Virus record (IMG/VR): IMGVR_UViG_3300045988_167643
From: a virus
DNA: 64,000 bases
Direction: 5' to 3' (one strand)
A program made the position numbers and the translations under genes. The notes below the pieces were generated by a model that worked only from the letters and a program-made list of their open reading frames with translations, was not told the origin of the DNA and searched no databases. This document shows positions 15,013 through 51,319 of this stretch, piece after piece (position 1 is the first letter of the stretch; the number at the start of each line of letters is the position of its first letter).

Positions 15013-15013
15013 G

Positions 15014-31576: not shown

Positions 31577-34500
31577 TTATCTAAGACTCTTAAAATCTCT
31601 TACACGCTTCTTTTCGTATGCATCGATCTTCTTAACGACAATATCACCTACTGCGTTTGCATCAGTAGCTTCATTTACAACAATATTGTAAACTGTACTA
31701 TGTTCATAAGATTGATTATTTGTGTTGGTAATCGCATTCATAAGTTCCTTATACATTTCACCAAATTGTGGTTGGCTACTCTGTGTAGCGATACCTGCAT
31801 TATCAATAAGCCTCTTAGTAAAGTCTGCTGTAAATATTTTATCGCCCTGATTTAAAAATGTGAGAGTACCGTATTTCCTTGACAGTACGGATTCCATACC
31901 ATTTTCGTTTACACGGTACATTCCAGACTTAGGTACATAATCAGTTCCGGAAGCATAACCGGTAAGTCCTGATAATGTAGAACTAACCTGTTCGTCTGTT
32001 AATCCAACATTTTTCAGAATAGTAGAAAGATTATTGAGAACCTGCGCATTACTAAGAGCAGAATTTGAAACTGCTTCATTAATAGCTTTACTCATTTTCT
32101 CTACGTTAGAGCTTATGTCGTTAGACCATTTGTCAAAATCATCACTCATATCTGAGGATAATTTATCAAGCGCATCACTTTGCATACTGAAAGCATGGTC
32201 TGTCATAGTATCAGAAAGATCTTCTCTTGCATCTGATAATTGTTCCTGGATCTTTGCCAAACGTGCTTTATCTTCAGCGTTTGTTGAACCCTGGAGAGCT
32301 GCCGCTTGACGTTCAAGGATCTGAATGTCTTTAGTCTTATCCTTTAAAGTTTTATCGTAATCGTAATAGTCTTTCTTTGCGGAAAGGGCTTCCTTACGCT
32401 TAGATATTACTTTATTAAGAGCATCAAGTTCTGCTTGAGCCTGATTTTTGACAAGAGAGAGCATATCATTTTGAAGAGAACTATTTGATGAAATTAAAGA
32501 ATTATATTTAGACTGAATGTCTTTTATATATTCATCATAAGTCTTTTCGCCAAATTCAGAAGACATATCTTCGCCATTAGCGTATCGTTTTTTCACATCA
32601 TTTTCTTTTTCAAGAAGCTTTTGTATTTCTTTCTGATTTGCAGAAAACTGATTTCTATTCAACATTACAGAAGTAGCTCCCAATTCTGTAAGTAGTCCAG
32701 TATTCTTATCAACTTTCATATCATCAGAGATAATTTCGTTCAGTGTATCAAGACGGTCCTTGAACTGATCAATTTTCTCTATTGCACGATCAAACTGTTC
32801 TTCATAATAAACACCAATTTGTTGCTGTTTCAGATTTTCAATACTTGTGTCGTAATCGGTTACAGCTTTTTTTGCTTCTATAATCTCGGATTTCATATTA
32901 ATCCATTCCTGAGATCCTTCTACAATTGTGCCATTGTCAACACCTTCTTGGAGTCTTTTCTCAAGTTCATCAACTTTATCCTGTGCGATATTTCTCAGAC
33001 TTTCAGTATTTGAGATCTTAATCTCATAATCAGAAGAACGCTCATAATTTCCATGAGCATTGTATAAATCAATGTTTGCTTCTTCCATTTCATTATACTT
33101 TTCCTGATATCCTAACAATCCTTCATAATACGTCTTCGCATTATCAAATTTACTTTGAATAGCTTCGACTGTGGCTTTAGCTGCTTCTGTCTGTGATTCC
33201 GCTGCATTAGCTGCCGCTGTTGATTCTGCATCTGTGACAATATTTAATTTCTGTTCTGTTTCGGCTGCAGTAGTAACATATTTATTATATGCTGTAAGAG
33301 CCTTTTTAAGAGACTTGTCTTTTATCTTATCGACATTTATTTCTTTACCTGCTGCTAATTTCTTTTTCTGATTATCACTCAGCTTACTACCAAACTTTTT
33401 CTTAATAGCTTTAGCTTTTTTACTAACCTTATCGTCTGCTTGTTTCTTGGCTTTCTCCTGTGCGTTAAGATTTTTCTTAGTTTCCTCCCAAGCCTTGTTG
33501 TTAATATCTGCAGCTTGCTTTGTCTGTGTCACATTCTGATCAGTTAAGGAATCCATATAGGAAAGTTCGTTTCCTTCCTGATATCCGGCGATTGCTGTTT
33601 CTGCATCTGTCTTAAGAGATGAAGAATTCTTATTTGCAGTGTTAAATTTAGTCTGAGCCGTTTTCTTTTTAGAATCTGCTTTCTTTTTATTTTTAACTGC
33701 AGAATTATACTCTTCGGCACGTTTCTTCGTAGTCTTGTTAGTAATCTTACTGGTATCAATAGTCTTTCCGGATTTAATAGCTTTTTTCTGCTCATTCGTA
33801 AGACCTTTTGATTTAAGAAGTGCTTTTTTCTTTCTATTTACAGCTGTAGTTGCCTTATCTGCTTTCGCAGTTGCTGTGTCAAGATTTGATTGTGCTTTTT
33901 CTGTAACTACCTGTGCTGATTCGTAACTTGCAGTAGCAGCGTCTGCTATAGCTTTTTGTGTTGATCCACCTGTCTGAACAGCAGATAACCTTGACTGAGT
34001 TGCATTCAATCCATTAAATCCGTTTTGTAAACGTTCCAATTTCTGCTCTGCTGTTTCAGTTGGCATATTAGCCCATTGCTCAAACAATTCCATTTGCTCT
34101 TTTTTCAGATCAACAACAGCTTGTTTACAATCCTGTGCCTTGTCGTAATATGTCTTATACTGATCGATAGCCTCTGCCAGAGCCTTACCCTGATCTGTTG
34201 AAGTGTCCATATCTTCAATACGGTAAGCACCTTTTTGTACAAGTTTCTGATATTTCTTTGGTACATTGGTTTTAATCTCTTCTCCATCGCTATTATAATA
34301 AGTGTACTCATTTGCTATAGAGTTAGCCTTTTTCATATAGGTTTTTGCACCTTTCTGATTAGACCCAATCTCATAGTTCATCTTACGAATTTGCTGTTTG
34401 AGCAAAGATGTTTTAAGTGACTTCTTAATATAATCAGTGATTTTATCAGCGATTTTTTGAACCTGATCAGACCAATGTTTAATACGAGTTTCTACCCAGT

Positions 34501-37500
34501 TATATACCTTAGTAGATTTTTTTACCTTTTCAGTATTGTCATTTACGGTGTCTGTATTTTTCTTAACAGAAATTGTATTTTTATCGGTAATTGTGGAATT
34601 AGAGGGAGATGACTGATTACCTTTATTTAAACCAAAGCTATTGCCACCACCTTTTGGTGATCCGTCTAAGAATGCACTCATTCCACTATGAACCGTTCCA
34701 CCAGCAAGTGCTCTAGCATGTCCACCTCCAGACATGACACGTCCTGAATTTATAAGTTCAGATGTTTGTTTTGAATTAAAGATAATATCGCCCTTTTTTA
34801 AATTCTCAAAATGAGCACCACCAGGAATTACCATCCATTTTCCGTCACGTACAATTGACTCCGGACCATCAGGAAGCTCATTTACAAGAGCTTTTTCATT
34901 ACTTTGTAATGCTACGTTTCCATCTGCATGAGCAGGAGAGTAGTTAAGAACATTATAAGCTGTACCAGAAGCGTGTGCTACACGGAGCATAGTACCAGAA
35001 GCAAATCCACCACCAGTTCCACCAGAATTATTTTTAACATTTGTAGTTACATTTGCGGTGACATTAACTGAATGTGGTTTGTTTAATTCAGCTTGTATTG
35101 TGCTTACCATAGAAGAAATATTTGCACCAACATTGATATTCGCAGTCTTATTATTAATTTCTTCTACTGCTGCATTAGCCGCTGAAATTGCAGGTCCTTT
35201 ATTACCATCAATTTTCATTTCAGGCTTTTGATTTTCTGCGTATTTTTTAGCTTCATCAACACTTTTTTTGTATGGAGTATTATTCCCATCAATAGGTATA
35301 CTTGATTGTTCAGTTGCTTGTGATTGTAAATTCTTTGCACTGACTGAAACTGAAAGAGATGGGTTAGAAGATTGCAATTTAGAAACAGTGGAATTAATAA
35401 GACTTAAAGTCTGACGAGATGTATTGTCAAGATTTACACTAACTGTTATCTTTTGAGTATCCTTTGGAAGACCTGCAATTTTATCAAGAAATGCATTTGC
35501 ATCCTCTTCATTATCAATATTAAAATGATATGTTAACTGCTGAATACCATCATCAAAAGCACTTAAATCAAGTTTATTAATTGCATCTTGAATTCCTGCA
35601 TCATCTAGTCCTTGAATATCAAACTTCAGAGTCTTTTTAGTCTCATCATCAATGCTATCCAACTCTGCTTTTGCATCATTTACGGCTTTTTGAGCATCAG
35701 ATGTATCTAATCCAAGAGATTTCTGCTTATCTAACTCGTTAACAGCTGTTTGGTAATTTTGAATTGCCGTAATAGCATTTTGAAGATCTGCATTAACACT
35801 ATTTAACTGATCATCTGAAATATTCATTACAGCAGGAGCTTCTAACTCTTGTTTTCTTTCTATAAGAGTCTTTAAAATTGTTTCAGCAGCTGAAATTTTA
35901 TCTGTGTTGACATCAATATCAGAACTCTCTCTAAGACCTTGCAAATACTTTGAAAGATCAGATATTTCACTATCCAGATCATCCCCTGTTGCGGAAAGAT
36001 TTATTTCAACATCTGGTTCTATAGTGTCGATCTGTTCTTCCAACGAGGTAATATTACCATCAACATCAATAATAAGATGATAATCTTTTGCAAAAGAGTC
36101 TAATTGCTTTTGAAGCACTTCTTTTAACTGGACATCATCTGTATTATTGATATCATCTATCATTGTCTTGGCAACAGATTTAGCATAATCTGTCTGCTCT
36201 TTAGTATATTTACCTTTCTTATCAACAAGCTCATCCATGTTGGCATTTGCATTTTTGATCCGCTCTTCGAATTCTGCAATTTTCCTTTCAGATTCAGAGA
36301 GAGCAGTATCATAGTCCTCGGTGTTCGGATTTGCTTTTATCTGAGCAAGATGCATTTTTTCAGCTGCTAATTTACTATATAAGTCAGAAATTTTCTCCGT
36401 ACCGGCTTCTTCAGTTGTAAAGAAATCATTATAGAAACCATAGTCTTCAAGTTTTCCGAAAACAGACATAAGAGGTTCAAACCCAATTCCAAGTTTGTCT
36501 GCAGTTTCTTTAAGCTCCTCCATATTATTTCCAAGAGAATAAGTCCAGTTACCATTTTCTTGTTCGGCCAATCCAAGAGCCTGAAGATCATTAAGGAAAT
36601 TGATACATCCATCAGAACCTTCAGTAAAATATTTCTCGATCTTTGACATATTTTCTGCAAAATTTGCATAGTCATCTGATCCAGTAGGAGAGAACATTGC
36701 GGCTGTGGTCTTGAAATCATCCGTTCCAACCAAACCTTTTTCATATGCTTCTTTAGCAGTATTATACATGGAAAGCATATCATCATAGGTCGCTCCTCCA
36801 TTCTCAGTAGAAGAAGCATCTTTTGCAGCTTCATATTGTGGAGTTGGAATTTTTAAACCAGCAATTTTTTTATATGCTCCCTCAATGTCGTGAGCACCGG
36901 CAATTACATCATCGACATATTTTTGAAGAGCATCTGCGTTTGCATCTTCACCGGCATCTCGTAAAGCCTCTATAGCATCTGTAAACTGGTTAGTTACATC
37001 ACTGTCCATAGAATCCATCAGATCATCAATAGCAGAAGAGAGGTCTTCTGTATTTCCTGCATATTTTGCAAGATCTGGGAATTTATCCAGGAATGTCTTT
37101 CTTGTAGAACCAGTCATAAGACCGTTCTTTAGATCTTTTTGAGCTTGATAGAGTGACTGATATTTATCCTGATAATCTGTGAGCTGGGATTGGATTGTTT
37201 CATTATTAATAAAATCTGCTGTAGTTGGAAGAAAATTCTGAATTTCTTTTCCCCAATCGAATCCAGTAGAAGTGATATTTCCAATATTCTGTTCGACCGC
37301 TTTAAGCATTGCTTGGGCGCCTGTGTCAGATGTCATATAGCTTGAATAAGAATTGATAAATCCTTTTGCCATATTTTCTGCAACTGTCTGTGGCGCAGAG
37401 CTATAAGCATTTTTGAACAGTTTTTCTATTTCCTGCTTCGCTGTAGCAGCATCAATATCAGACAAATCAGCTTCTTTCAGAATGCTTCCTTTAAGAGCTT

Positions 37501-39685
37501 TAGCATATTCCATCTCTTCTTTAGAAGCACCAACCATCGCATCATCTATTTTTTTTATACTATCTGTTACTTTAGATACTTTGAGGTTTGAAATAGATTT
37601 CTGTAAATCGTCTGTACCAGAAGCTAGTTGTGGAAACTGTTGAATAAGGTCAGTGAGATCTGAATCTTTAAACTCGCCTGTTTTAAGCTTTGTAAGAGTA
37701 TCTGATAAAGAAGAAATATCTGACTGCAAAGAATCAATAGAAGATGAGATTTCATTATCAGAATCGCCAAGAATTGATGAGAGAGTAGGACCATCTGTGG
37801 ATTCTGCTACCGTTTTCTTATATCTTTCAATGGCAGAAACTAATCCATCTGTGCCTTTCTCAATATCAACTGAACCATTATCAATTAACTGTGCAGCAAT
37901 TGACAGATCGCCTGTCTGCATCTGGTCAATAAAATCACTGGCATTTGGAAAATCTGCATATGCTTCTTTAAGACGTTCTGCGTTATCTTCCATGTCCTCA
38001 ATAGATGAATCAATACCATAAGCATTCTTGAACCGCTCCTGGAGTTCTTTCTTTTCCTCTGTGTCATTTCCAAAAGCATCTTTAAATGCTTCATCAACTT
38101 GCGACCTGTATTCATCAATAGTTAATTTAGAAGGATCAATTTGTAGTGCTTTTGCAAGACTTTCTTGTACATCCGTACTAAACTGAGACATTGGCCCAAG
38201 AAATTCACCATACAGAAAATCAAGTACCTGTCCTTTATATTCACCATCAGGATCATTTAATGCAGTTAAATCAAGATTTGAAATATTAGCCAGAAATGCA
38301 CTCTGAAGACTATCATCAAGCTCATTAAATGATTTTGATGTCTGAAGATAATTTCCAAGTGATTGAGCCATGCTACGCCATTGATCTTCAATCATTAAGT
38401 CATAGGAATTAATTTCGCTCTGAAGTTGACTTCTCTGAGATTCCAATGTTAAATAATAGGATTCCATACCAGCTGTAATCTGTTCATTCATCCTATCTAT
38501 TTCTTGTTTTGACTTGTCAGCAAGACCTTCAGCATAGAAATTCCAGATGCTTCCGTCATCACCAGTATTCTCTTTGTATAATCCGTTCTCTTTTAGAACA
38601 TCAGTAATAACATTTTCTTTATCGCCATACAAATTCTGAACTTCAAAATTGTTACTTCCATATGTTAAAATACTACGTTTGTTCTCAGAAATATCAATAT
38701 CTAGTTGAGCTAGTTCATCACGTTTTTTCTGAATATCTTCCGCATATTGACTTGTCTGTGTAACAACACCATCATATGTTGCTTGTAGATTTTTCCCCAT
38801 ATCAACATTTGCAGAAGAAACTTGTGCCTCATATAAGTTACGAATACTATCAGCAGCCTTATCTGCATTGGAAGCAAGGTTTAATACAGCATTTCCCTGA
38901 CTATCGTAACCTGCTACCAGACCAGGAAACTGAGAGGCAAGCTTACTACTGAGATCAATATATTGCTGATACTCGTCTGTAGATAATGATACATTCTCGT
39001 TTGTATTCTGATTTACTCCCTTACGAAGCTCTACATATTTTTCGGCAACTTGATCGATTGCATCACCGGTATTTTTTATTTGTTCTGTCTGATCACCGAA
39101 TGAAGATCCAAGGTCCATGATGGACTGCTTACCTTCTTCGAAGCTTTTGAATGTGCTGTCAATAGAATCCTTTGCTTCCTGTCCAGCTTTGATGATATTT
39201 TCGCTACGATGTCTATAATCATCTATGGCTTCAAATACTTTGCCAATAGCCCAGGATGCAGCCATAGCTATTGCCATATTGCCAAGAGTTCCAACAAATG
39301 TCTTTGCGACATTACCTGCGGTTTTTAAAGCAGCGCCAAATTTTGTTGTACCTTGTATAACTGTTTGCTGAGATTGAGCAAAATTGGCTAAATTTTGAGA
39401 TCCTAATTCTGTATTAGAATTATATTCAATTAATTTATTATTGCCTTCATCTAACTCATTAGCCCATGTTGAAGCCAGATTTTTATATTCATCACTTGAT
39501 AAATCAGCTTCTTTTGGAATATCGTTAATTAATCTTTTAAAATATTCTTGCTCATTATTGGTTGGATTATAATTTTTAACAACATCTTGCTTCTTTGTAA
39601 AAAAGTCTTTAATACTTTCCCAAAATTCAGATAAATTCTTTCCATTATTAAATGTACCCTCAGTTTTATCGTAGTTAAAAATCAA
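31577..39685 (-). CDS. tape-measure protein, distal 2702-aa segment (no credible own start)
   Basis: The frame opens only 5 codons upstream. The sole start candidate is TTG with no SD (AAATAGATTATTTCAATTTG). It contains a post-core hydrophobic segment (FGAALKTAGNVAKTFVGTLGNMAIAMAASWAIG), kilobases of coiled coil, and two ...NE(L/N)...GPE/GME-type motifs (ALVNELPDGPESIV; RVNENGMESVL). Confidence 0.85.
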   Translation of the reverse strand: MIFNYDKTEGTFNNGKNLSEFWESIKDFFTKKQDVVKNYNPTNNEQEYFKRLINDIPKEADLSSDEYKNLASTWANELDEGNNKLIEYNSNTELGSQNLANFAQSQQTVIQGTTKFGAALKTAGNVAKTFVGTLGNMAIAMAASWAIGKVFEAIDDYRHRSENIIKAGQEAKDSIDSTFKSFEEGKQSIMDLGSSFGDQTEQIKNTGDAIDQVAEKYVELRKGVNQNTNENVSLSTDEYQQYIDLSSKLASQFPGLVAGYDSQGNAVLNLASNADKAADSIRNLYEAQVSSANVDMGKNLQATYDGVVTQTSQYAEDIQKKRDELAQLDIDISENKRSILTYGSNNFEVQNLYGDKENVITDVLKENGLYKENTGDDGSIWNFYAEGLADKSKQEIDRMNEQITAGMESYYLTLESQRSQLQSEINSYDLMIEDQWRSMAQSLGNYLQTSKSFNELDDSLQSAFLANISNLDLTALNDPDGEYKGQVLDFLYGEFLGPMSQFSTDVQESLAKALQIDPSKLTIDEYRSQVDEAFKDAFGNDTEEKKELQERFKNAYGIDSSIEDMEDNAERLKEAYADFPNASDFIDQMQTGDLSIAAQLIDNGSVDIEKGTDGLVSAIERYKKTVAESTDGPTLSSILGDSDNEISSSIDSLQSDISSLSDTLTKLKTGEFKDSDLTDLIQQFPQLASGTDDLQKSISNLKVSKVTDSIKKIDDAMVGASKEEMEYAKALKGSILKEADLSDIDAATAKQEIEKLFKNAYSSAPQTVAENMAKGFINSYSSYMTSDTGAQAMLKAVEQNIGNITSTGFDWGKEIQNFLPTTADFINNETIQSQLTDYQDKYQSLYQAQKDLKNGLMTGSTRKTFLDKFPDLAKYAGNTEDLSSAIDDLMDSMDSDVTNQFTDAIEALRDAGEDANADALQKYVDDVIAGAHDIEGAYKKIAGLKIPTPQYEAAKDASSTENGGATYDDMLSMYNTAKEAYEKGLVGTDDFKTTAAMFSPTGSDDYANFAENMSKIEKYFTEGSDGCINFLNDLQALGLAEQENGNWTYSLGNNMEELKETADKLGIGFEPLMSVFGKLEDYGFYNDFFTTEEAGTEKISDLYSKLAAEKMHLAQIKANPNTEDYDTALSESERKIAEFEERIKNANANMDELVDKKGKYTKEQTDYAKSVAKTMIDDINNTDDVQLKEVLQKQLDSFAKDYHLIIDVDGNITSLEEQIDTIEPDVEINLSATGDDLDSEISDLSKYLQGLRESSDIDVNTDKISAAETILKTLIERKQELEAPAVMNISDDQLNSVNADLQNAITAIQNYQTAVNELDKQKSLGLDTSDAQKAVNDAKAELDSIDDETKKTLKFDIQGLDDAGIQDAINKLDLSAFDDGIQQLTYHFNIDNEEDANAFLDKIAGLPKDTQKITVSVNLDNTSRQTLSLINSTVSKLQSSNPSLSVSVSAKNLQSQATEQSSIPIDGNNTPYKKSVDEAKKYAENQKPEMKIDGNKGPAISAANAAVEEINNKTANINVGANISSMVSTIQAELNKPHSVNVTANVTTNVKNNSGGTGGGFASGTMLRVAHASGTAYNVLNYSPAHADGNVALQSNEKALVNELPDGPESIVRDGKWMVIPGGAHFENLKKGDIIFNSKQTSELINSGRVMSGGGHARALAGGTVHSGMSAFLDGSPKGGGNSFGLNKGNQSSPSNSTITDKNTISVKKNTDTVNDNTEKVKKSTKVYNWVETRIKHWSDQVQKIADKITDYIKKSLKTSLLKQQIRKMNYEIGSNQKGAKTYMKKANSIANEYTYYNSDGEEIKTNVPKKYQKLVQKGAYRIEDMDTSTDQGKALAEAIDQYKTYYDKAQDCKQAVVDLKKEQMELFEQWANMPTETAEQKLERLQNGFNGLNATQSRLSAVQTGGSTQKAIADAATASYESAQVVTEKAQSNLDTATAKADKATTAVNRKKKALLKSKGLTNEQKKAIKSGKTIDTSKITNKTTKKRAEEYNSAVKNKKKADSKKKTAQTKFNTANKNSSSLKTDAETAIAGYQEGNELSYMDSLTDQNVTQTKQAADINNKAWEETKKNLNAQEKAKKQADDKVSKKAKAIKKKFGSKLSDNQKKKLAAGKEINVDKIKDKSLKKALTAYNKYVTTAAETEQKLNIVTDAESTAAANAAESQTEAAKATVEAIQSKFDNAKTYYEGLLGYQEKYNEMEEANIDLYNAHGNYERSSDYEIKISNTESLRNIAQDKVDELEKRLQEGVDNGTIVEGSQEWINMKSEIIEAKKAVTDYDTSIENLKQQQIGVYYEEQFDRAIEKIDQFKDRLDTLNEIISDDMKVDKNTGLLTELGATSVMLNRNQFSANQKEIQKLLEKENDVKKRYANGEDMSSEFGEKTYDEYIKDIQSKYNSLISSNSSLQNDMLSLVKNQAQAELDALNKVISKRKEALSAKKDYYDYDKTLKDKTKDIQILERQAAALQGSTNAEDKARLAKIQEQLSDAREDLSDTMTDHAFSMQSDALDKLSSDMSDDFDKWSNDISSNVEKMSKAINEAVSNSALSNAQVLNNLSTILKNVGLTDEQVSSTLSGLTGYASGTDYVPKSGMYRVNENGMESVLSRKYGTLTFLNQGDKIFTADFTKRLIDNAGIATQSSQPQFGEMYKELMNAITNTNNQSYEHSTVYNIVVNEATDANAVGDIVVKKIDAYEKKRVRDFKSLR
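39664..39678. repeat. 15-nt inverted-repeat arm (TTTTATCGTAGTTAA) inside first codons of distal TMP segment
   Basis: It is the perfect reverse complement of 47220..47234. The RNA duplex is extendable to 17 bp with one G-U. Confidence 0.9.
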
Positions 39686-39692
39686 ATTGAAA
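39685..39692. repeat. 8-bp direct repeat AATTGAAA (island left junction)
   Basis: Identical to 47240..47247. Both copies read xT-TTC-AAT-Tx (Phe-Asn) in the same codon phase on the minus strand. Confidence 0.85.
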
Positions 39693-39747
39693 TAATCTAT
39701 TTATAATGTTATACTTGCAATATAAAATTATAAATTGGAGGGTGATT

Positions 39748-43266: not shown

Positions 43267-43279
43267 TACAAAAACCAAT

Positions 43280-43420
43280 ACTGTTCACTGTCCTCGCTGC
43301 GGTAGCACACAGATCACTACAGGGCAGAGAGGTTATTCCTTTTTAACTGGTTTCTTAGGTTCCAATAAAGCTGTTAATAGATGCGCAAAATGTGGACATA
43401 CTTTGGAACCGAGAGGGTAA
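43280..43420 (+). other. Zn-ribbon cassette copy 3, +1 frame relative to upstream ORF, no own start codon
   Basis: It encodes [46 protein letters not shown]. Its frame is open from 43238 without a start codon. The junction contains the tandem AATACAAA-tt-AATACAAA. Confidence 0.75.
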
Positions 43421-43421
43421 T

Positions 43422-43691
43422 TTATTTAATACCATGTTCTTCCAAAAACTCATCAGCTATTTGACTAGAAACTTGTTTTATAATTTGAGTAAGATTACCA
43501 TGAACGTCAATTTCCGGCATCTTACCAGTTGTTTCGAATTTAATAATGTCATCAATTGACATATTCTTAAAATGATTTCGCACTAATGTAAATGTGGTTT
43601 CAATATCACCTTCATCAGTACAATTATTTTCGTATAACAATTTAATAATTTTTGTTGCAATATTTTCTGTCTCAGAAATTGACCACAACAT
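43422..43691 (-). CDS. hypothetical 89-aa acidic protein, divergent partner of 43723..44154
   Basis: RBS AGAAAGGTCGTG. Its start lies 31 nt from the divergent gene's start. Confidence 0.6.
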   Translation of the reverse strand: MLWSISETENIATKIIKLLYENNCTDEGDIETTFTLVRNHFKNMSIDDIIKFETTGKMPEIDVHGNLTQIIKQVSSQIADEFLEEHGIK

Positions 43692-43722
43692 ATTTTCACG
43701 ACCTTTCTATGGAGGATTGAAT

Positions 43723-44154
43723 ATGATATTAAACTATGATTGTTTTAGAGATGTACTCTTATATATTGAAGAACAAGATAATATGAAGCTTAATGGAGAT
43801 TTCAAGCGGATTATGTTAAAAGATATAAAGGATCACTTTTCAGGCAAATACACTGAAGAGGATGTACAATATTGTGTGAAAAACTTATTTGACGGAAGAT
43901 TCTTAGAAGGATTGTATTCTATAGATGATAACTATAAATATGAAAACTGTAAAATTTATGATGTTACATTCGAAGGACATAAATTAGCAGAATCAATTAG
44001 ACCTGACTCTATATGGAGGAAGAGTAAAGCTAAATTAAAATCTGTAGGTATTTCTTCTATAAATATGATCTCAGCAGTATGTGTAGAAGTTGCTAAAGTA
44101 GCTGTTACTGATCCTAAATTTATTACCGATATTGCCAATGGAATATTTAAATAA
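43723..44154 (+). CDS. DUF2513-like (winged-helix-like) protein
   Basis: RBS GGAGGATTGAATATG. The N-terminus MILNYDCFRDVLLYIEEQ...F resembles the remembered DUF2513 family. The track start at 43594 lies inside the divergent gene. Confidence 0.5.
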   Translation: MILNYDCFRDVLLYIEEQDNMKLNGDFKRIMLKDIKDHFSGKYTEEDVQYCVKNLFDGRFLEGLYSIDDNYKYENCKIYDVTFEGHKLAESIRPDSIWRKSKAKLKSVGISSINMISAVCVEVAKVAVTDPKFITDIANGIFK

Positions 44155-44293
44155 AGTTCACTGTCCTCGCTGTGGCTCAACGCAAATTACCACAGGTCAA
44201 ACCTTGCAAAGAGCATTGTTTAGCTTAATGTATAATCAGATTACTGTCAATCGATGCGCAAATTGTGGGTGCACTTGGAGACAAGGAATATAA
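44138..44293 (+). CDS. Zn-ribbon cassette copy 4 as possible 51-aa stand-alone ORF (+1 frame, overlaps upstream stop)
   Basis: An ATG at 44138 lies in the cassette frame but has no SD. It encodes [51 protein letters not shown]. The central loop has diverged. Confidence 0.45.
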   Translation: MEYLNKVHCPRCGSTQITTGQTLQRALFSLMYNQITVNRCANCGCTWRQGI

Positions 44294-44307
44294 GGAGATT
44301 ATATAAT

Positions 44308-44466
44308 ATGGAAGAAAACATATTTGATAAGTTTAAAAATGTGGTTCGTAAGCCGAAACCAGAACCAACTAAGCCAAAGGCAACTAAAATTTCTGATATT
44401 AATTTAGAAAAGAATAAACGAGAAATTTTTACTCTCCATGACGAAAAAGATAAAAACAAGAAGTAA
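44308..44466 (+). CDS. 52-aa Lys/Pro-rich peptide
   Basis: RBS TAAGGAGATTATATAATATG. The sequence is highly basic and low-complexity. Confidence 0.5.
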   Translation: MEENIFDKFKNVVRKPKPEPTKPKATKISDINLEKNKREIFTLHDEKDKNKK

Positions 44467-44607
44467 TACATTTTTTTAAAAAATCTATTGTTTTTATATA
44501 TGGCGTAAAGAAAAGTTCAATAGCATGGGGAAATGGATCTGGAACTTCTCTAAACAATTCTATATCTTTTATTTTTAAATCTTCTGTGTCATTAGGAGGT
44601 GTATTTA

Positions 44608-44808
44608 GTGAACTCAAATTTCGATTCAAAAGAATCATTCCTTTCTTATAAGTTAAATATTTTTAAAGAATTGTATAATGATGAATGTGAAAGAAGAAAC
44701 ATTGCTTCACAAAAAATTTCAAGAATTATTCCATTAATTGTGGCAATGTTTGGTGGTGACACCAATATTTTTCAAAAGCTTTTTCTGGCAACAGATAATC
44801 CTCTATGA
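44608..44808 (+). CDS. 66-aa ORF, possibly a truncated N-terminal fragment
   Basis: A GTG lies 8 nt after AGGAGG. It ends inside the convergent gene 44726..44935, in the position the Ntn-hydrolase gene occupies in the paralogous module. Confidence 0.35.
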   Translation: MNSNFDSKESFLSYKLNIFKELYNDECERRNIASQKISRIIPLIVAMFGGDTNIFQKLFLATDNPL

Positions 44809-44935
44809 CTTCCTTGACAAAGAAAGTAGGCAAGGGAGTATTAAAAGATTTTTCACTAGATCCACCACGAGAATCGTTTATTGATATTTTGTGTGAATCA
44901 ATAAATATGTCGCAATCAAAAATTTTTACATGCAT
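44726..44935 (-). CDS. small protein, family B paralogue
   Basis: The start was refined to MHVKIFDCDIFIDSHK (RBS GAAGGTGAAG). Confidence 0.6.
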   Translation of the reverse strand: MHVKIFDCDIFIDSHKISINDSRGGSSEKSFNTPLPTFFVKEVIEDYLLPEKAFEKYWCHHQTLPQLME

Positions 44936-44983
44936 AAAAATCTTCACCTTCTTTTTTTATTTAATTAATAGACCAAGAGAGTA

Positions 44984-45331
44984 TTAGTGCTCTTGGTCTG
45001 ATTCTTCATGCTTGGTCCATGCTAATGTATAAGTTTTTAACCAAAAGTAATCTTTACCGAAATCACCATCAGACCGATATATATCAAATTCATTTATATT
45101 ATAAATACCTAATGTCTCATACATGGCATCACGGTATGTCTTATAAGATCCAAGAACCTTATTATCATCTTTTCTTATTACTAGATAACAATCTCCGTAT
45201 TTTTCAAATAATTCTTTCTCGTGGTCTGTAAAATAGCAGTGGGCTTTACCATCTCGATCTGTTGACATATTAGTATAATTAAAGAAATCTTTATCTTCAA
45301 ATATAACAGTTCCTCTTTGTATTAATTTCAT
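44984..45331 (-). CDS. small protein, family A paralogue
   Basis: RBS AAAGGAGT. FEKYGDCYLVIRKDDNKVLGSYKTYRDAMYETL aligns with the family A members. Confidence 0.65.
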   Translation of the reverse strand: MKLIQRGTVIFEDKDFFNYTNMSTDRDGKAHCYFTDHEKELFEKYGDCYLVIRKDDNKVLGSYKTYRDAMYETLGIYNINEFDIYRSDGDFGKDYFWLKTYTLAWTKHEESDQEH

Positions 45332-45375
45332 TTAATAATACTCCTTTTTAATCATAATAATAGACCAGGAGAGTG

Positions 45376-45846
45376 TTAATTCTCCTGGTCTAAATTATCA
45401 TATTCATTTAAGAAATTTGCTGTTCCAAAAGATGGGATTCTAAATGAAAAACTTGTTTTTCCATTTAAATTTGATACTGCAAAATCACCTTTTGAAATAA
45501 TATCCATACCAATAATAATATCAAAAACATCATGTTTTTCAATTTTTAATACTCGCAAGTTATTAAAAACAAAATCGTCTCTAAACATTAAATCAATTGA
45601 ATAAATATTTGTTAATTTTGACTCACGATGACCTCCAGTATAGAAATTTGATTTTCCAGTTGAAGTAAGATTATATTTTTCCACTATATTGCTTGTTATA
45701 CATGAGACAGAAGCACCTGTGTCCCAAATACAAATAAAGCGATTTTTATCAATTAAATCATCTTTCTCTTTTCCTACATAAACATAGGAAGTAAGTTGAT
45801 TCATTATCTTATTTGAACTATATGTAAGAACTCGTATTTTATCCAT
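45376..45846 (-). CDS. retropepsin-like aspartic protease, copy 2
   Basis: Contains IWDTGASVSCIT, IIGMDIISKGDFAVSN and FSFRIPS. Its start lies 4 nt after the upstream family A gene's stop. Confidence 0.75.
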   Translation of the reverse strand: MDKIRVLTYSSNKIMNQLTSYVYVGKEKDDLIDKNRFICIWDTGASVSCITSNIVEKYNLTSTGKSNFYTGGHRESKLTNIYSIDLMFRDDFVFNNLRVLKIEKHDVFDIIIGMDIISKGDFAVSNLNGKTSFSFRIPSFGTANFLNEYDNLDQEN

Positions 45847-45849
45847 ATC

Positions 45850-46140
45850 TTATTCACTTATAGAAATCCATTTATATTCTGGTATGCGAACATATTTTCT
45901 ATTAAAAACACCATCACAATGATATATATTAAATTCACCTACATCATAATAGAAAAGTGTTTCTCTTAATGCTTCTCTATATGTTTTATATGATCCAATG
46001 ATAATATTATCTAATTTTCTAATAGACAGATAACATTCTCCATATTTTTTATATAATTCTTCATGATGATAATAAAACCAATCTGTAGGATGATTTGGAA
46101 TTTCTACAATTTCCCCTTCATAATAATGTATTTTTCCCAT
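45850..46140 (-). CDS. small protein, family A paralogue
   Basis: The start was refined to MGKIHYYEG after AAGAGGTG. Contains YKKYGECYLSIRKLDNIIIGSYKTYREALRETL. Confidence 0.65.
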   Translation of the reverse strand: MGKIHYYEGEIVEIPNHPTDWFYYHHEELYKKYGECYLSIRKLDNIIIGSYKTYREALRETLFYYDVGEFNIYHCDGVFNRKYVRIPEYKWISISE

Positions 46141-46187
46141 ATTAAATTTCACCTCTTATCATATCATATAATGGATTAATTTCAATC

Positions 46188-46224
46188 TATATAAATAAAA
46201 GCACCACGTTTGCAAGCCGTGGTG
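46188..46224 (-). terminator. rho-independent terminator ending the ORF-poor RNA region
   Basis: On the minus strand, CACCACG-gcttgcaaa-CGTGGTG is followed by CTTTTATTTAT. Confidence 0.7.
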
Positions 46225-46681
46225 AGTGTGTGCAGTTAGTGCATTTCAGGTAGTAGGAGAGTAGTAACCTCACGGTTCTATCCATACTATTCGATCCATC
46301 ATGCTACCCAGGCTTTCCCTGGTTGGACTGTATATTGTACTATATGTTGTAACGCCACACATAATACGCCTTGTCAGCCTCTCGCACGTTAACTGTAAAA
46401 CTACACTTTTACATGAAAACACATATGTTCTGGATTTACAAAAATGGACAATTATACTACAATCGAAGTCAGATAAACTTGTGATCACAGTTCTACATTG
46501 TGATTCGTTGCACGACAGTATATCTGACAATCGTCATGTAGTATTGAATTAATGGTACGCAATTTGTACCAGAAATGAGATTATCTAAAATGAAGCATTC
46601 TAAATATTATATTCATTTCTATGGGATTCTCCCAACATCAAATCTCTTTCTTGATACTTTCGTACAGGAAGGAGGTGAGAT

Positions 46682-46855
46682 ATGGAAGATGTATTTCTAT
46701 TCGTTTTAACTCTTGTAGGATTATTAATCCTATGGTCGTTAATCCGCAGAATACCATCTAAGAACATGAAAAACTTTCACATCCATTTTGGATTTTTGAA
46801 AGGATTTGACATGTCTGGAGAATTCTATAAGGATGACACCAAAAATAATAAATAG
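46682..46855 (+). CDS. 57-aa hydrophobic-N-terminus peptide (type-I-toxin-like)
   Basis: Strong RBS GGAAGGAGGTGAGATATG. It encodes MEDVFLFVLTLVGLLILWSLIRRIPSK..., a TM helix followed by a charged tail. Its own terminator lies downstream. It is below the ORF-track cutoff. Confidence 0.55.
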   Translation: MEDVFLFVLTLVGLLILWSLIRRIPSKNMKNFHIHFGFLKGFDMSGEFYKDDTKNNK

Positions 46856-46892
46856 TTTAGTTCATATTTTTGTAATCTCCTTTTGTCATTTA

Positions 46893-46945
46893 AGAGAGTG
46901 GAGAGTTGTTAGCGCAACTTTCTGCTCTCTATTTCTTTCTTTCTT
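46893..46945 (+). terminator. rho-independent terminator of the small peptide gene
   Basis: AGAGAG-tg-GAGAGTTG-ttagcg-CAACTTTC-tg-CTCTCT is followed by ATTTCTTTCTTTCTT. Confidence 0.7.
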
Positions 46946-47219
46946 CCTGTTATAATTGCGTTTTATTCGTGAATTTATCATCCACTTTTGTAAATTTAAA
47001 CATATGTGTTTGCTAACGTGTCGGAACTACCATCTTCAATATATCCCTTTCATTCATTTTCAGAACTAAGGTACCACAGTGATGTGGATTACGGCTTCCT
47101 CCGATATTCGGCTTTATAGCTCTAAGGCTAAAGGTCTGTCAATAGGTGTCGAATCACCATCTTGAACAAGTTCTATACTAACTGTCGCGATTATGACAGC
47201 AGCATATCAAATGGGCATC

Positions 47220-47234
47220 TTAACTACGATAAAA
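47220..47234. repeat. 15-nt inverted-repeat arm (TTAACTACGATAAAA) at island right end
   Basis: It is the reverse complement of 39664..39678. It supplies the codons FYRS* that terminate the proximal TMP segment. Confidence 0.9.
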
Positions 47235-48053
47235 TTTTGAATTGAAACTAGCTTTATGGTTTATGTTAAGCTGTTTACCCAGACCTGCTTGTGAAAGTTT
47301 AAATCCTGCGAATCCTCCAATTGCTGTTGAGAGCAGTGGAAGTTTATCCAGGATCTGAGTTACGATGTTAAGAAAGGCGGTTGCTGTATCTATTACGCCT
47401 TTAAACATATCTGAGTTGATAGTTACTGTTGCAAGCTCTTGGAGCTGTGTTTGGAGCTTTGTGATATGAGCTTCTAACGAAGATAAATACGTCTCATTTT
47501 CACGATCTGCCGAGCCTTTCGCATTTTTTGATGACTCGATTGCTTCCCTTAAAATATCAGGTGACTGCAATATACTAGCAGCTGTATTTGCGCGGTTTTT
47601 GCCGGCAATTGTTTCAAGCAAAAGATTTACATTGTTACTTTTGGTCTTTTTATCGGTTTCTTCGATCTCATTATAGATATCTGCTATATCCTGTAATACA
47701 CTTGCCGTTGAACGGTAGTTCCCGTTATTATCAAGAATATCTATACCTTTAAAACCATTAGAAGCGACTTTTGTTGCGCTCATAATTACGTCTCTAAGCT
47801 TAGAAACAGTTGTTACAACACCATCTGTCTCTTCGCCAAGTTCTTGCAATTGCTGAACGGCAACGCTTGTTCCTGTTAGACGGAGAGCAATCGTTCTCAT
47901 TGCGGCACCAACGGATTCTGGGTCCTGCACAACCTGGTTGCCTGCCGTAATTAATCCTATACTTTCGTCTATATTATTACCTGCTGTTTTAAGAGCAGAT
48001 GCTGATCTTTGTAATGCTGATGCTAACCCATCGGTGGAGATGGAAAAATTATT
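47220..48053 (-). CDS. tape-measure protein, middle segment (exon 2 of intron-split TP901-type core)
   Basis: It begins NNFSISTDGLASALQRSASALKTAGNNIDESIGLITAGNQVVQDPESVGAAMRTIALRLTG, the hallmark TP901-family core block as remembered from Firmicutes phage TMPs. The track codons MVSRACLESNSL upstream belong to the intron 3' end. Confidence 0.85.
   Translation of the reverse strand, partial: NNFSISTDGLASALQRSASALKTAGNNIDESIGLITAGNQVVQDPESVGAAMRTIALRLTGTSVAVQQLQELGEETDGVVTTVSKLRDVIMSATKVASNGFKGIDILDNNGNYRSTASVLQDIADIYNEIEETDKKTKSNNVNLLLETIAGKNRANTAASILQSPDILREAIESSKNAKGSADRENETYLSSLEAHITKLQTQLQELATVTINSDMFKGVIDTATAFLNIVTQILDKLPLLSTAIGGFAGFKLSQAGLGKQLNINHKASFNSKFYRS
47240..47247. repeat. 8-bp direct repeat AATTGAAA (island right junction)
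   Basis: Identical to 39685..39692 and in the same codon phase. Confidence 0.85.
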
Positions 48054-49627
48054 CAAACTGTTACTTTCGAGACAAGCTCTACTAACCACACAAAATTAGT
48101 ATGGCGCATAGGCATTTCTACCTATGTCTCACGCTTTATATGAATTGGGATTATAACGTGACGATTATACTTAAAAGTATAAAAGAGCCTTTCGGCTGTT
48201 CGGACTAGATCTTCATCCTATAAAATAGGAGAGTAGCGAAACTCTATTTGTTTATTATCCAAATAGAGTATTATGGTCTCTACGGATATATGTAATTAAT
48301 TATTTTATAATATATGTATATTCTTTTCTGTTTAAATCTTGATATGGGGTAATTATATTAGAATTTAAAGAAAGACTAGATTCTGAAATACTATAATTAA
48401 AAGAATGATAATTATTTAATACACCATTACAATTTATATATTCTTGAATTAATTTTTTACATAATTCTTCGTTTTTATTTATATCAGTTTCCCACAAATA
48501 TAAAATTTTTATATCATATTTATTGGTAATATATGATTTCTTTTGCTTATCTTTTATAATTGTTCTGTCTTGTATTGAATTCAAAGTATATTTATTTTCA
48601 TTGTATCTTATTGGGTTACCATGCCAATAATCGCCCATAACCTCTATTATTAAATTAAAATCATTTAAATAATTATCAGCAGCATAATATTCAAATATTT
48701 TCTCGCGTTCATAATTAATCTTTAATTCATCTAATATAGAATTTATTTTTAACTGAATTTTAGAATTTCTTTTATTTGAACGAGCGCTATTTTGGGCAAT
48801 TCTAAGACGTATTTTTTCTTTTTGTTCTGGCGTAAATTTTTTATTAAACATGGGGGATTTTTCTTGAATATAATGTTTAGATTTGAATTCATAATAACAT
48901 TGTCTGGAGCAATAATTGAAATTTTCTCCAAATGAATTGACTTTATTATAATTAGATGGAATAATTGCAAGAGGTTTACCACAATTAGTGCAAAACGTAT
49001 TTATTCTATTATAAAATTGACTTTCCTTACCATGGTCTAATTTATTTGGTTTATCTTTATGATAACATTCATTAGAACAATACGAATGTTTATTTACTAA
49101 ATAAACACTTGGAAAATCTTCAATTTCTTGTCCACAATATTCACAATTGGTTTTTACTAATATTTTTCTACTATGATTCCCTAATTGCTGAACCATTTTA
49201 CAAATATCTTTTAGCGATCTATTCTTATACATACTTTGCAAGGTGTTCAAATAAGGATCGTCTGTTGTTAATAAAAAAGATAATGCTGTTTTTACATCTT
49301 CCTTAGTCCATCCATCAATATTAGGAACAATATTTTTATGACGTTTTAACCAATCACAATAGGCACACGTTCCATTATTTCCATTTTCTTTTAAATTTCT
49401 AATTCTAATAAATCTCTTTTCTAAATTTCTTCCACACACATCACAATGGACTATATGATTCAATGGAATACTATCATATTTTTCTTTACTTCGCATAAAA
49501 CCTCTTTAAATTAATTACATATCTTTCCACGGTCTTGGCTTTCCCATAAGCTATTAACCGTTATAGCTACTTACAGGGAATATAAAAATTCCCCACATGT
49601 TACCATGTGTTTAGGCATAATCATTTC
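48054..49627 (-). mobile_element. group I intron (1574 nt) in the tape-measure gene
   Basis: P1 pairs exon UAGGU (49632-49628) with intron GCCUA (49616-49612), with a U-G wobble at the splice site. P10 pairs intron AUUAU (49621-49617) with 3'-exon AUAAU (48052-48048). The intron ends in G (48054). An S-like element GAAGAUCUAGUCCGAAC lies at 48201-48217. The spliced junction reads VNQVG|NNFSIS. Confidence 0.8.
48300..49496 (-). CDS. intron-encoded homing endonuclease, Zn-finger N-terminal half + PD-(D/E)XK (Vsr/EDxHD-like) C-terminal domain
   Basis: It has multiple CxxC pairs (CDVCGR, CAYCDW, CEYCGQ, CTNCGK). The C-terminus has LIIEVMGDYWHGNP...D..KD...KILYLWE, a Vsr/DUF559-like pattern. It lies wholly within the intron. 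Confidence 0.7.
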   Translation of the reverse strand: MRSKEKYDSIPLNHIVHCDVCGRNLEKRFIRIRNLKENGNNGTCAYCDWLKRHKNIVPNIDGWTKEDVKTALSFLLTTDDPYLNTLQSMYKNRSLKDICKMVQQLGNHSRKILVKTNCEYCGQEIEDFPSVYLVNKHSYCSNECYHKDKPNKLDHGKESQFYNRINTFCTNCGKPLAIIPSNYNKVNSFGENFNYCSRQCYYEFKSKHYIQEKSPMFNKKFTPEQKEKIRLRIAQNSARSNKRNSKIQLKINSILDELKINYEREKIFEYYAADNYLNDFNLIIEVMGDYWHGNPIRYNENKYTLNSIQDRTIIKDKQKKSYITNKYDIKILYLWETDINKNEELCKKLIQEYINCNGVLNNYHSFNYSISESSLSLNSNIITPYQDLNRKEYTYIIK

Positions 49628-51319
49628 ACCTACCTGATTAACCTTGTCCACCAAATCTGTTTCTGCAACTTCGCTATACGCAGCTTTCATAGAAATCAGC
49701 GCAGAAGTTGCATCATCAATATTATCAAACTCTGATACATTTAATAATTTATTAGCATTTACAGCTGACTGCTTGGCATCCGAGAATGATTCTCCGAGCC
49801 TCTGGAAATCGGCCGTACTATTCTGGATCTGCAGAGCAGTAGTACCAACGCTCTTTGCCATATCGAAGCTTTCTTTTTGGAACTCTTTCAGCTTACTGAT
49901 CGGCTCATCTGATACTTTTCGCATTTCTGTAAGAGCAGTATCAAACTCTTTAACTATTTCTAAACCTTGTTTGAACGTATTCCAAACTTGATTCATTGCC
50001 TGGAATGAAGTCAAATATTGGGCAAGGTTTACCATTTTTTCTTTCCAACCTGAGAAGAATTTGCTAAGTCCACTTTCGACAGGTTTTACAGAAGTTCCAA
50101 GATTTTTAATCTGTCCATTCAGTGTATTTAATTGAACACTTAAAGTCTGCGCTTCACCGGCACTATCCTTAAAAGTTCCTTTAAGTGAAACAATTCCATT
50201 CTTTTCTGTAAATCCACTAAAGGTAATATCCTGTATACCGGTAAGTTCTTTCAGATAACTTTCCAATTCCCCTTTAGCATCTGTGATACTTGCAGGATCG
50301 ATGATTTTACCAATACTTCCAACAGATCCAATTAGCCCACTGACTTTCTTCTCAAATTCACCAATGCTCATTTTGCCTTTTGCGACAGCAGTAGCCCATT
50401 TGTTTATCTGTTCTTCACTGGATTTAAATACATCTTCAATTCCAGCGATGCCACTTTTGTCAGCCTTTATCTTGTCGAAAGCATTATAAGCGCTCTGAAT
50501 TCGATCTCCGTATTTACTAAGATTGTCTGTGATAGTCTTATCAATATCATCAAATCTCTGCTTTGCATTTATTTCAGAAGTGTTCTGTGGTGTTTTTGCG
50601 TTTACTCTTGCCATAACTTTATTTCGTTCTTCTATGGCGGCTTGAGCTTCTGTTGTATTATGTCTAAACGTACTAAGAGTATGAACAAAAGCTTCATTAT
50701 CTGCAAGTGTCTTATAATCACCAACATAAGACTGGTCAGTTACATATTTTGGGGTTTTAGTAGAAGTGGAAGACGATGTGTTATTTGTAGACTTCTTATT
50801 ACTACTTCCAGTTGCTTTTGCAGCTTTATTTAAATCTTCCTTATTGCTTTTTAAAATATTCGCAAGATTCTGTAACTCATCTTTTTTTGCAAGCATCTCA
50901 TTAATCTGAGTCATTAATCCGGAAGTAACTTCTGATCCTAATGTTTCTTTAAGATTCTGAGCAGAAGTAGCAATTTCACTCATGCTTGATTTAATAACAT
51001 CAATAGATGTTAAATCTAATAAAGTAAACTGCTTTGAATTTCCTGAGACAATGCTTTCTGCACCTTTCCCAATATTAGTTAATGGCTTTCCAGCACCATT
51101 GGCAGACTTCTGTAATTTATCAATCTCTTTAGTGACGTTTTGAATATTTTTTCCTGCATTTGTCAACCCAGAGAAAATATCACCATTAAATTTTACGTTA
51201 TTAATTTTCTGTAAAGCTTTCGCTGTTTTTTCAAGCTCATCAGCAATACTTTTTAATTGGCTGACTTTACTATCATCAACCTCTATACCAGTTTTTATAC
51301 TAAAATCTTCATTAGGCAT
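49628..51319 (-). CDS. tape-measure protein, proximal segment (exon 1)
   Basis: The coiled-coil N-terminus is followed by FDTALTEMRKVSDEPISKLKEFQKESFDMAKSVGTTALQIQNSTADFQRLG...DKVNQVG, the start of the TP901-type core. The last 18 codons of the track ORF (EMIMPKHMVTCGEFLYSL*) are intron read-through. Confidence 0.85.

Follow-up and report, generated by a model that had tools for sequence, protein, structure and literature searches.

The gene for the tail tape-measure protein (TMP) in the virus record IMGVR_UViG_3300045988_167643 of IMG/VR, from which a stretch of 64,000 nucleotides (referred to as the window) was analysed, is probably a single gene that is split by two introns of group I, A and B, and reassembled by RNA splicing, with intron B holding a cargo of 6.5 kb. 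The window has a G+C content of about 32% and consists mostly of a minus-strand run of virion genes. Gene products of its relatives matched the SPbeta virion families YonB, YomU_Tube and YomW, and the source is therefore taken to be an SPbeta-like large siphophage or prophage of a low-G+C host. In the closest annotated phages, among them Brevibacillus phage Sundance (2528 aa) and Enterocloster phage PMBT24, the TMP is encoded by a single long gene.

An earlier note on this sequence had described the TMP as three collinear segments on the same strand, and the pieces were recovered as such among the minus-strand open reading frames (ORFs). The listing gave minus-strand ORFs at 51319-49571, 49496-48300 (398 aa), 48089-47220 and 39685-31577 (2702 codons), with a 7.5-kb stretch containing genes on both strands between the last two. 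According to the ORFs and their translation, the limits of the first segment (51319-49628) and the start of the second (48053) had been given exactly. Exon 1 (49628..51319, minus strand) comprises 564 codons from the ATG at 51319 to ...DKVNQVG and is collinear with the N-terminal parts of the TMPs of relatives at 83-97% identity. Exon 2 (47277..48053, minus strand) comprises 259 codons, NNFSISTDG...KLSQAGLG, and was delimited at its 3' end by an indel and the P1 pairing described below. It reached the Pfam family PhageMin_Tail (PF10145) with 36.8 bits (cut-off 33.2), in agreement with the TMP core that had been ascribed to segments 1 and 2, and the break between the two exons does lie within the conserved block ...VNQVG|NNFSIS.... 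Exon 3 (31577..39682, minus strand) contains 2701 codons and a stop, begins with IFNYDKTEG, and encodes a hydrophobic segment, long coiled-coil-like stretches and the motifs GPE and GME. The C-terminal parts of the intact TMPs P0021, P0056 and Sundance are homologous to it.

Joined, the three exons give a frame of 564 + 259 + 2701 = 3524 aa without an internal stop. In the predicted product the PF10145 core is followed in one polypeptide by hydrophobic segments and a long C-terminal part, as in a TP901-type tape measure. The comparison with relatives that the earlier note had proposed was carried out, and the TMPs of the more distant relatives P0021, L022, L026 and Sundance were found to be collinear with the spliced product and unbroken across both junctions. 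Because these TMPs are continuous at both sites, the interpretation of the three pieces as one gene in three exons, and not as three genes, is supported.

Intron B (39683..47276, minus strand, 7594 nt) was delimited by P1, P10, the terminal omega-G and the core helices. The interrupted relatives fetched for this site were ten loci of the window clade together with L012, L013, L032 and L033/34, and every one of them contained an insert there, 1.1-7.9 kb in length and variable in gene content. The site is uninterrupted in P0021, L022 and L026. The 5' splice site was placed after CUGGGU (47277|47276). Unspliced read-through past exon 2 would add KQLNINHKASFNSKFYRS* and end at the stop codon 47222-47220. 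In L005, L006 and L007 a deletion of 7 nt (window 47265-47259) shifts the frame of this presumed coding tail, so that read-through yields KQLNIKLVSI* in place of KQLNINHKASFNSKFYRS*; the tail "KQLNINHKASFN" is therefore regarded as non-coding and not as part of the exon. Of the U-ending codons ahead of the indel, the last one with a pairing partner is found in CUG GGU (47277). Segment 2 had previously been ended at 47241 with six codons supplied by the island, while exon 2 is now placed to end 12 codons further upstream (...KLSQAGLG, 47277), and the codons read from the insert number 18. A junction of the form AAU|...UUG| with a guide to UUUCAAU was also tried. It provided only AUUGA-type pairing with a U-A pair at the splice site and was dropped after the 7-nt indel was taken into account.

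At the other end, it was confirmed that segment 3 has 2702 codons from a TTG at 39685, that no ATG, GTG or Shine-Dalgarno sequence is available, and that the frame opens only 5 codons upstream. This TTG represents the last three bases of the insert, and exon 3 begins with ATT at 39682. Within the window clade the codon preceding exon 3 is TTG in six loci and ATG in four, with a Shine-Dalgarno sequence in none; across lineages its final G alone is constant. A conserved start of the 2702-aa ORF, which the earlier note had named as evidence for independent genes, was not found, as the same codon is GAG in L033 and AAG in L012, L017 and L021. The junction peptide, formerly given as KASFN(L)IFNYDK, is thus corrected to ...LSQAGLG|IFNYDK... 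and the length of the joined product from about 3540 to 3524 aa. This junction aligns with the intact TMPs, which read GGG-IF in P0021 and GIG-IL in L026.

Both exon ends can pair with a single internal guide, 5'-AGUUAAGAU|GCCCA-3' (47212..47225, minus strand), which was read from the sequence and lies 61 nt into intron B. Its part GCCCA (47216-47212) is complementary to the exon 2 end UGGGU (47281-47277), forming P1, in which the pair at the splice site is a U.G wobble. The part AGUUAAGAU (47225-47217) is complementary to the exon 3 start AUUUU-U-AACU (39682-39673) with one bulged U, forming P10, and the terminal base of the intron, G39683, occupies the omega-G position. P10 is retained in relatives whose exon 3 begins with AUCUU (L004 type) or GUCUU (L005). 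The guide target G|AT[CT]TT(T)AACT occurs once on the minus strand of the 64-kb window, at 39683, with a chance expectation of 0.07 per shuffled 7.7 kb.

Across lineages, the guide beside the 5' splice site was read, and a complement preceded by G was sought downstream. Matches were found for UCACUU in L012 (6 nt, position 14944), CUGCUUA in L013 (7 nt, position 19416, 5.6 kb away), CUGUU in L017 (5 nt, position 8614), UCGCUUAAA in L021 (9 nt, 9/9, position 8928, 3.7 kb away) and AUUGUAAAGUUU in L033/34 (12/12, position 19332, 5.66 kb away), and at position 14858 in L032 (9/10). The pairing between guide and exon 3 therefore covaries across seven lineages, and all sites predicted from the guide open the frame of the C-terminal TMP part in phase with the upstream exon. 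In L033 the site follows a GAG codon, and the called start codon comes only 162 nt further downstream. Such in-phase sites, one of them ahead of any start codon, argue most strongly for RNA splicing and against independent initiation. P1 changes in the sister family compensate as well (UAGAU/GUCUA versus UUGGU/GCCA).

Ribozymes of two related families, L and W, are found at this TMP site, and that of the window belongs to family W. Family L (L012, L013, L017-L021) has a conserved non-coding block of 400 nt with GAGAGACUACCCUUCC ... AAUGCAUAGUCC, for which RNAalifold predicted 106 pairs and found compensatory changes in 44. The family L intron of L012 is located 17 codons downstream of the site used by its relatives (13975|13976 and 14943|14944); the exon extends through ...TFYNYEKTFPFISKTLD, and both halves of the guide are retuned (GUCUA, AAGUGA). 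L012 is a case of an intron moved to a neighbouring site.

The family W core was detected in 37 viral-contig loci by a pattern scan. In the window it is divided into two minus-strand blocks, which were recognised from the contiguous copies in L032 and L033. The 5' block (47014..47211), assigned by helix reading and family W covariation, contains P2 (47206-47174), the 5' strand of P3 (47112-47110), P4 (UCGGAG/UUCCGA, 47104-47099 with 47026-47021), an A-rich J4/5 (GAA) between P4 and P5, and P5 (GCCGU/AUGGU, 47095-47091 with 47033-47029). P6 connects the two blocks with 7/7 pairs (47020-47014 with 46391-46385). The 3' block (46202..46391) was assigned by sequence, helix table and covariation. 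With it belong P6b (46412-46395), the 5' strand of P7 (G46381, bulged A46380 and GGCUG at 46379-46375), the 3' strand of P3 (46370-46368), P8 with 11 bp (46367-46357 with 46347-46337), J8/7 (AAUAUA) between P8 and the 3' strand of P7 (CAGUCC, 46330-46325), P9 with a GAAAG loop (46322-46308), and a terminal hairpin (46224-46202). P7 of the Tetrahymena ribozyme has a bulged nucleotide followed by a G-C pair (C262/A263/G264) in its guanosine-binding motif, and the same arrangement is present here as G46381-C46325, bulged A46380 and G46379-C46326. Between the blocks, the loop of P6 holds an insert of 620 nt (46392..47013), absent from the contiguous cores of L032 and L033, despite which the ribozyme would have to fold. 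On the plus strand this insert encodes a hydrophobic ORF of 57 aa (46682-46855) with the ribosome-binding site GGAGG, and the terminator scan found a terminator-like hairpin (46893-46930, plus strand) in it, next to the 5' block.

Covariation of the core was counted in 12 family W members, using the window copy with the P6 insert cut out. Over 46 pairs in 8 helices, 90% of the cells were paired, compared with 33-44% when the strands were slid; double changes affected 20 of the 46 pairs, and none of 500 shuffles reached the observed values. The window fitted P4, P5, P6, P6b, P7 and P9 in the alignment; MAFFT misaligned its P3 3' strand and P8, and these two helices were read directly. Extraction helix by helix showed compensatory changes in P3, P4, P5 and P6. 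Within the window clade, the P8 change 46367 G>A of L005 is compensated by 46337 C>U. In nine loci of the window clade the region 47238-47010 is free of substitutions, while the flanking TMP sequence differs by up to 50%. The terminal hairpin 46224-46202 has a conserved loop and a covarying stem in relatives without a U-run and looks like a part of the ribozyme. In a blastn search, none of 50,697 phage records was matched by the 5' module.

Early guesses at the core were all wrong, namely a P7 of GAGCUA/UAGUUC, a P3 of AGAACU/AGUUCU or CUUGU/ACAAG, and an 'S-like' element GAAGAUGGUAGUUCC. The last-named stretch belongs to P5 and P4, of which it forms the 3' strands; the true R and S elements are located 600 nt beyond it (46385-46325). 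An '86-aa ORF' (46270-46530, minus strand) that is 90-100% conserved in relatives overlaps the 3' block from P6b to P9. It is probably not a gene, as its conservation is most simply attributed to the RNA.

From these features the following course of expression is proposed. A late transcript would run through both interruptions, crossing 7.6 kb at the second, and each would be removed as a group I intron. In intron B the ribozyme at the 5' end, split by the insert in the P6 loop, would be followed by the 6.5 kb of cargo and then by the 3' splice site, and the one guide would pair with the end of exon 2 first and with the start of exon 3 afterwards, G39683 serving as omega-G. Splicing would join ...SQAGLG to IFNYDK... 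and result in a TMP of 3524 aa. The RNA junction predicted for intron B is CTGGGT|ATTTTTAAC, i.e. ...GCAGGTCTGGGT|ATTTTTAACTACGAT..., and that for intron A is ...CAGGTAGGT|AATAATTTT...; the predicted junction peptides are VNQVGNNFSISTDGLASALQR and LSQAGLGIFNYDK, with LSQAGLGIFNYDK spanning the intron B junction. As tail length amounts to about 0.15 nm per residue by rule of thumb, 3524 aa would imply a tail of approximately 0.5 micrometre. The cargo would be spliced out and hence be invisible to the TMP, and some of its genes would be read antisense to the TMP under a sigma-70-type promoter of their own.

Several observations weigh against this proposal. Splicing in cis would require transcription over 7.6 kb past antisense genes and an opposing promoter, and the transcript would include TMP-strand hairpins at 45392-45361 and about 45009-44950. 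No protein spanning the spliced junction was present among the 120 best database homologues. P1 has just 3 pairs in L032 and L033, P3 has just 3 clean pairs in the window, and the energy predicted for folding of the 5' block does not stand out (z = -0.99). The Rfam model RF00028 (Intron_gpI) did not match, either at the gathering score, at which the window and five loci were covered, or at E-values up to 10, at which four small slices were covered; this includes L012 and the contiguous family W copy in L032. No other credible RNA family was returned by these scans. The ribozyme is thus outside the curated Rfam model, while P1, P10 with omega-G, the P3-P9 core and the P7 features were each tested and found.

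The earlier note had offered four explanations for the arrangement, RNA splicing, DNA excision, assembly from two pieces and a defective prophage, among which splicing is now favoured and the others fare poorly. Assembly from two pieces would mean that an N-terminal protein of about 841 aa, ending with the TAA at 47220, and a C-terminal protein of 2702 aa, starting with the TTG at 39685, associate non-covalently, and that the island is an intergenic hot spot. The ten loci of the window clade do have TTG or ATG at 39685, this is where gene callers place the start of the ORF (joined position j836 in P0001 and P0002), many N-terminal TMP parts in the databases stop near this point, and a spliced product is missing from the best 120 homologues. 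We nevertheless consider two proteins improbable, given that no relative checked has a Shine-Dalgarno sequence, that the equivalent codon in L033 (GAG) and in L012, L017 and L021 (AAG) is directly followed by conserved coding sequence with only its final G conserved, and that the conserved coding sequence of L033 begins 162 nt ahead of any start codon. The frame shift in the N-part tail by the 7-nt indel, the covariation of guide and exons and the continuity of the intact relatives through the site also contradict it. A split intein, which consists of an N-intein of about 100 aa following the N-extein and a C-intein ending in HN before C, S or T, does not fit either side of the interruption: exon 2 is followed by only 18 junk codons and by no N-intein of that size, and stop codons occur within 5 codons ahead of exon 3. 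Alternatively, the same ribozyme might act in trans or after processing, joining an RNA with the 5' exon and ribozyme to a separate exon 3 RNA, for example if transcription ended in the cargo. Such a course is suggested by TMP-strand hairpins after the ribozyme (46224-46202) and after cargo genes (45392-45361), by the opposing promoter at the 3' end, and by the unconventional processing of a giant mitochondrial group I intron (PMC6545197). On the TMP strand upstream of exon 3, however, no conserved promoter-like element was recognised, and the conserved block located there corresponds to the -10 region of the antisense promoter. Moreover, the hairpin 46224-46202 appears to belong to the ribozyme, and the last 60 nt of the intron contain no element complementary to the core beyond P10, so that joining in trans is rated as unlikely.

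Removal at the DNA level would require excision of the island on induction between the 8-bp direct repeats TTTCAATT (47248-47241 and 39693-39686). Deletion between these copies does keep the frame in the window and would create the junction AGTTTCAATTTGATT. In L004, however, the repeat reads TTCAATT and deletion creates an in-frame TGA, a result for which TTTCAATT was also rejected as a target-site duplication or att core. L005-L007 have the frame-shifting indel upstream of the repeat, the island is present in all ten related viral contigs, no integrase, recombinase, transposase or TnpB domain was found in the cargo ORFs of the window (Pfam, PHROGs, NCBIfam), and no terminal inverted repeats of the island were found; excision is hardly credible. 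Decay of a prophage whose TMP was broken by insertions and is non-functional might be suspected from the two interruptions of the TMP and from another structural gene of the window that is also split. This is very unlikely in view of three open exons (3524 codons) with apparent conservation at the protein level, the same layout in many contigs of 100-210 kb called viral, the invariant ribozyme block, intron hallmarks in every interruption, and the retention of the arrangement with intact ORFs in every interrupted relative fetched. RNA splicing in cis, with the cargo inside the intron, accordingly remains the preferred explanation for the interrupted TMP.

That the island is cargo within an intron had escaped the earlier note. 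The 6.5 kb after the ribozyme comprise three ORFs on the TMP strand (44984..46152), followed by five antisense genes (39748..44293). The minus-strand ORFs encode a protein of 100 aa (46152-45850), a retropepsin-like aspartyl protease (45846-45376; Pfam Asp_protease_2, E 2e-7) and a 115-aa paralogue of the 100-aa protein (45331-44984), the two paralogues sharing repeat D3. On the plus strand, matches to Pfam, PHROGs and NCBIfam indicated a double zinc-ribbon protein (39748-40275), two HExxH-motif paralogues (40519-41202 and 42580-43266), an HslV/proteasome-like protein (41339-41890) and a DUF2513 protein (43594-44154). The top match of the promoter scan was a sigma-70-type promoter, TTGAAA-17-TATACT with an extended -10 TG (39687..39715, plus strand), which lies 4 nt from the 3' splice site and ahead of the antisense cargo and from which these genes may be expressed. 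Its -10 region is kept in relatives with different first cargo genes. The conserved TGCAAGTATAAC ahead of exon 3 had been considered as an RNA element and is better explained as this -10 region. The content of the cargo varies between relatives. An antisense zinc-ribbon gene beside the 3' splice site was found in L012, L013, L032, L033 and the window clade and is the one cargo feature common to both ribozyme families. PADLOC detected nothing in the cargo except one weak match.

A zinc-ribbon module of 150 nt (repeat family D1) was found after each plus-strand cargo gene, with copies at 40121-40270, 41172-41321, 43266-43415 and 44139-44288. It is in frame with the first cargo gene only; after the first HExxH gene it is one frame off, just beyond a run of eight A residues (~41171-41178). 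The off-frame modules could be due to frameshifting or slippage, to decayed fusions, or to recombination scars of cassette exchange. A second gene of the same HslV/proteasome-like kind as that at 41339-41890 is located outside the intron (30558-31112, plus strand; Pfam Proteasome, E 1.6e-8), antisense between the end of the TMP gene (31577) and the gene for a DUF6558 tail protein (30478-29522). The related cargo of L013 contains a gene for an IS110-family transposase (16659-17930), which looks like a passenger, and that of L033 a gene for a SocA_Panacea-domain protein (14857-15333). Mobile elements and genes of the toxin-antitoxin type therefore also lodge in the intron.

Intron A (48054..49627, minus strand, 1574 nt) follows the exon base U49628 and ends with G48054. 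Exon 1 ends ...GTT AAT CAG GTA GGT and exon 2 starts AAT AAT TTT TCC. P1 is formed by the exon sequence UAGGU (49632-49628) and the guide GCCUA (49616-49612), 12 bases into the insert, with U.G at the splice site, and the 3' end of the intron reads ...CAGUUUG|. The site is also occupied in L005-L009 by inserts of 1574-1823 nt with differing internal ORFs. The close relatives L004 and L010 lack intron A; their frame runs on unbroken (...DNIG|NRYAV...), and their exon sequence has diverged at the site. L010 has a relative of intron A of 349 nt, without an ORF, at another TMP site with a retuned guide (CAGGU/GCCUG). Rfam gave no match for intron A. Its ORF of 398 aa (48300..49496, minus strand) combines, by weak matches, a zinc-finger N-terminal part with a Vsr/PD-(D/E)xK-like C-terminal part and is a candidate homing endonuclease. 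Pfam returned zinc-finger matches only, all below the cut-off, NCBIfam a weak Vsr match (E 0.008, residues 236-337), and the best, likewise weak match to a solved structure was 3r3p, 'Mobile intron protein' (E 0.066). The C-terminal part thus weakly resembles the PD-(D/E)xK homing endonuclease of the I-Bth0305I type (3r3p) from a Bacillus phage group I intron, while the N-terminal zinc-finger repeats are unrelated to it. Because presence and absence are polymorphic at one exact site, intron A appears to be a group I intron of the ordinary mobile type, its ORF being nuclease-like, which fits the known kind of TMP intron.

Further inserts were found at other TMP codons of close relatives, at about joined positions 625-628, 638 and 715-719. 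In some relatives, namely L008 (1878-2521) and the proteins P0016, P0029 and P0041, exon 1 is extended in frame by about 215 codons between the joined residues 171 and 190, which might be an intein or a variable domain. A third split gene of the window (57105-59763, minus strand) was recognised by alignment to an unbroken 398-aa virion gene of L034, residues 16-187 of which correspond to 59718-59179 and residues 188-398 to 57815-57111. Between the two pieces lies a LAGLIDADG/HTH ORF of 323 aa (58810-57839), and the interruption is probably a further group I intron with a homing endonuclease. Within the block of tail genes, directly upstream of the chaperone-like genes of the TMP, the window contains a gene for a RusA-like Holliday-junction resolvase (52732-53301, minus strand), and its placement is the same in L004 and L013. 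No tRNA genes were found in a scan of the window.

Group I introns in TMP genes have been described for prophages of the Bacillus cereus group, where three sites are occupied (TMP-IVS1, IVS2 and IVS3), the introns have retuned guides, and nuclease genes are present in some of them but not in others (Tourasse and Kolsto 2008; PMC2504315). The introns described here likewise use alternative sites in the TMP of Firmicutes phages, with P1 and P10 of related introns retuned to new sites and with different introns at one site, and intron A and the other polymorphic TMP inserts of the relatives fit this picture directly. Those of the B. cereus group, however, are ordinary IA1/IA2 introns with at most a homing-endonuclease gene, and no multi-gene island was reported for them (PMC2504315), whereas intron B carries 6.5 kb of non-nuclease genes that are partly antisense and have a promoter of their own. 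A similar layout is known from IStrons (CdISt1 and relatives), in which a group I ribozyme is fused to an IS605 or IS607 element (PMC10690162). As in IStrons, the ribozyme of intron B (47276-46202) lies at the 5' end, followed by the cargo and by a 3' splice site at the far end (39683); splicing of IStrons regenerates the interrupted host gene, and the same would hold for intron B. The cargo of IStrons consists of tnpA, tnpB and omega RNA, and they possess transposon ends and move by transposition (PMC10690162). Intron B has no transposase or TnpB, its cargo varies between 1.1 and 7.9 kb, and it is kept at one site across lineages. The ribozyme of IStrons is recognised by the group I model of Rfam, unlike the copies of intron B, and a scan of 39000-50200 by Rfam E-value detected no family resembling omega RNA. 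Many kilobases of unrelated functional genes within a group I intron are also found in the giant ND5-717 intron of hexacoral mitochondria, which holds most of the mitochondrial genome and whose splicing restores the host gene (PMC6545197). That intron is mitochondrial and carries its cargo in P8, while intron B lies in a phage structural gene and carries its cargo after P9, in addition to the smaller insert in P6. The literature searched, the coverage of which was incomplete, contained no account of a variable accessory-gene island inside a group I intron of a phage. Introns in TMP genes are already known; one that is conserved, laden with cargo and located in an essential tail gene is not.

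Very many N-terminal TMP parts from Firmicutes phages and prophages that are deposited in public protein sets (P0023-P0120; L017-L024) end a few residues past the first hydrophobic segment in unrelated junk tails such as ...KNVGRDKMYSLSF, ...KGKGEHTIMFQW and ...GGRVKMFTLIV. These truncated parts suggest widespread interruption of the TMP at this site by several intron families, with mis-annotation as the routine result. Current annotation pipelines produce a truncated N-terminal TMP part with a junk tail and a giant ORF without a start, and for this phage group the inference of tail length, structural annotation and proteomic searches will be wrong until the exons are joined.

It is conceivable, and at present a tentative interpretation, that a widespread group of SPbeta-like phages of the gut keeps an exchangeable island of accessory genes safely housed in a self-splicing intron of an essential tail gene. 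Cassettes such as the zinc-ribbon, HExxH, HslV-like, aspartyl-protease, DUF2513, Panacea-domain and IS110 genes could then be swapped without harm to the TMP and be expressed from an antisense promoter of their own, with two ribozyme families serving the one site. If the efficiency of splicing depends on antisense transcription, the intron could couple expression of the cargo to tail production. Confirmation of splicing would mean that many kilobases of variable, independently transcribed genes can be carried in a group I intron of a phage and that its distant 3' splice site is selected mainly through the guide. Such an intron would extend the precedents of IStrons and of the coral ND5-717 intron to accessory-gene islands of phages, and it would explain how accessory genes come to sit midway in an essential late gene.

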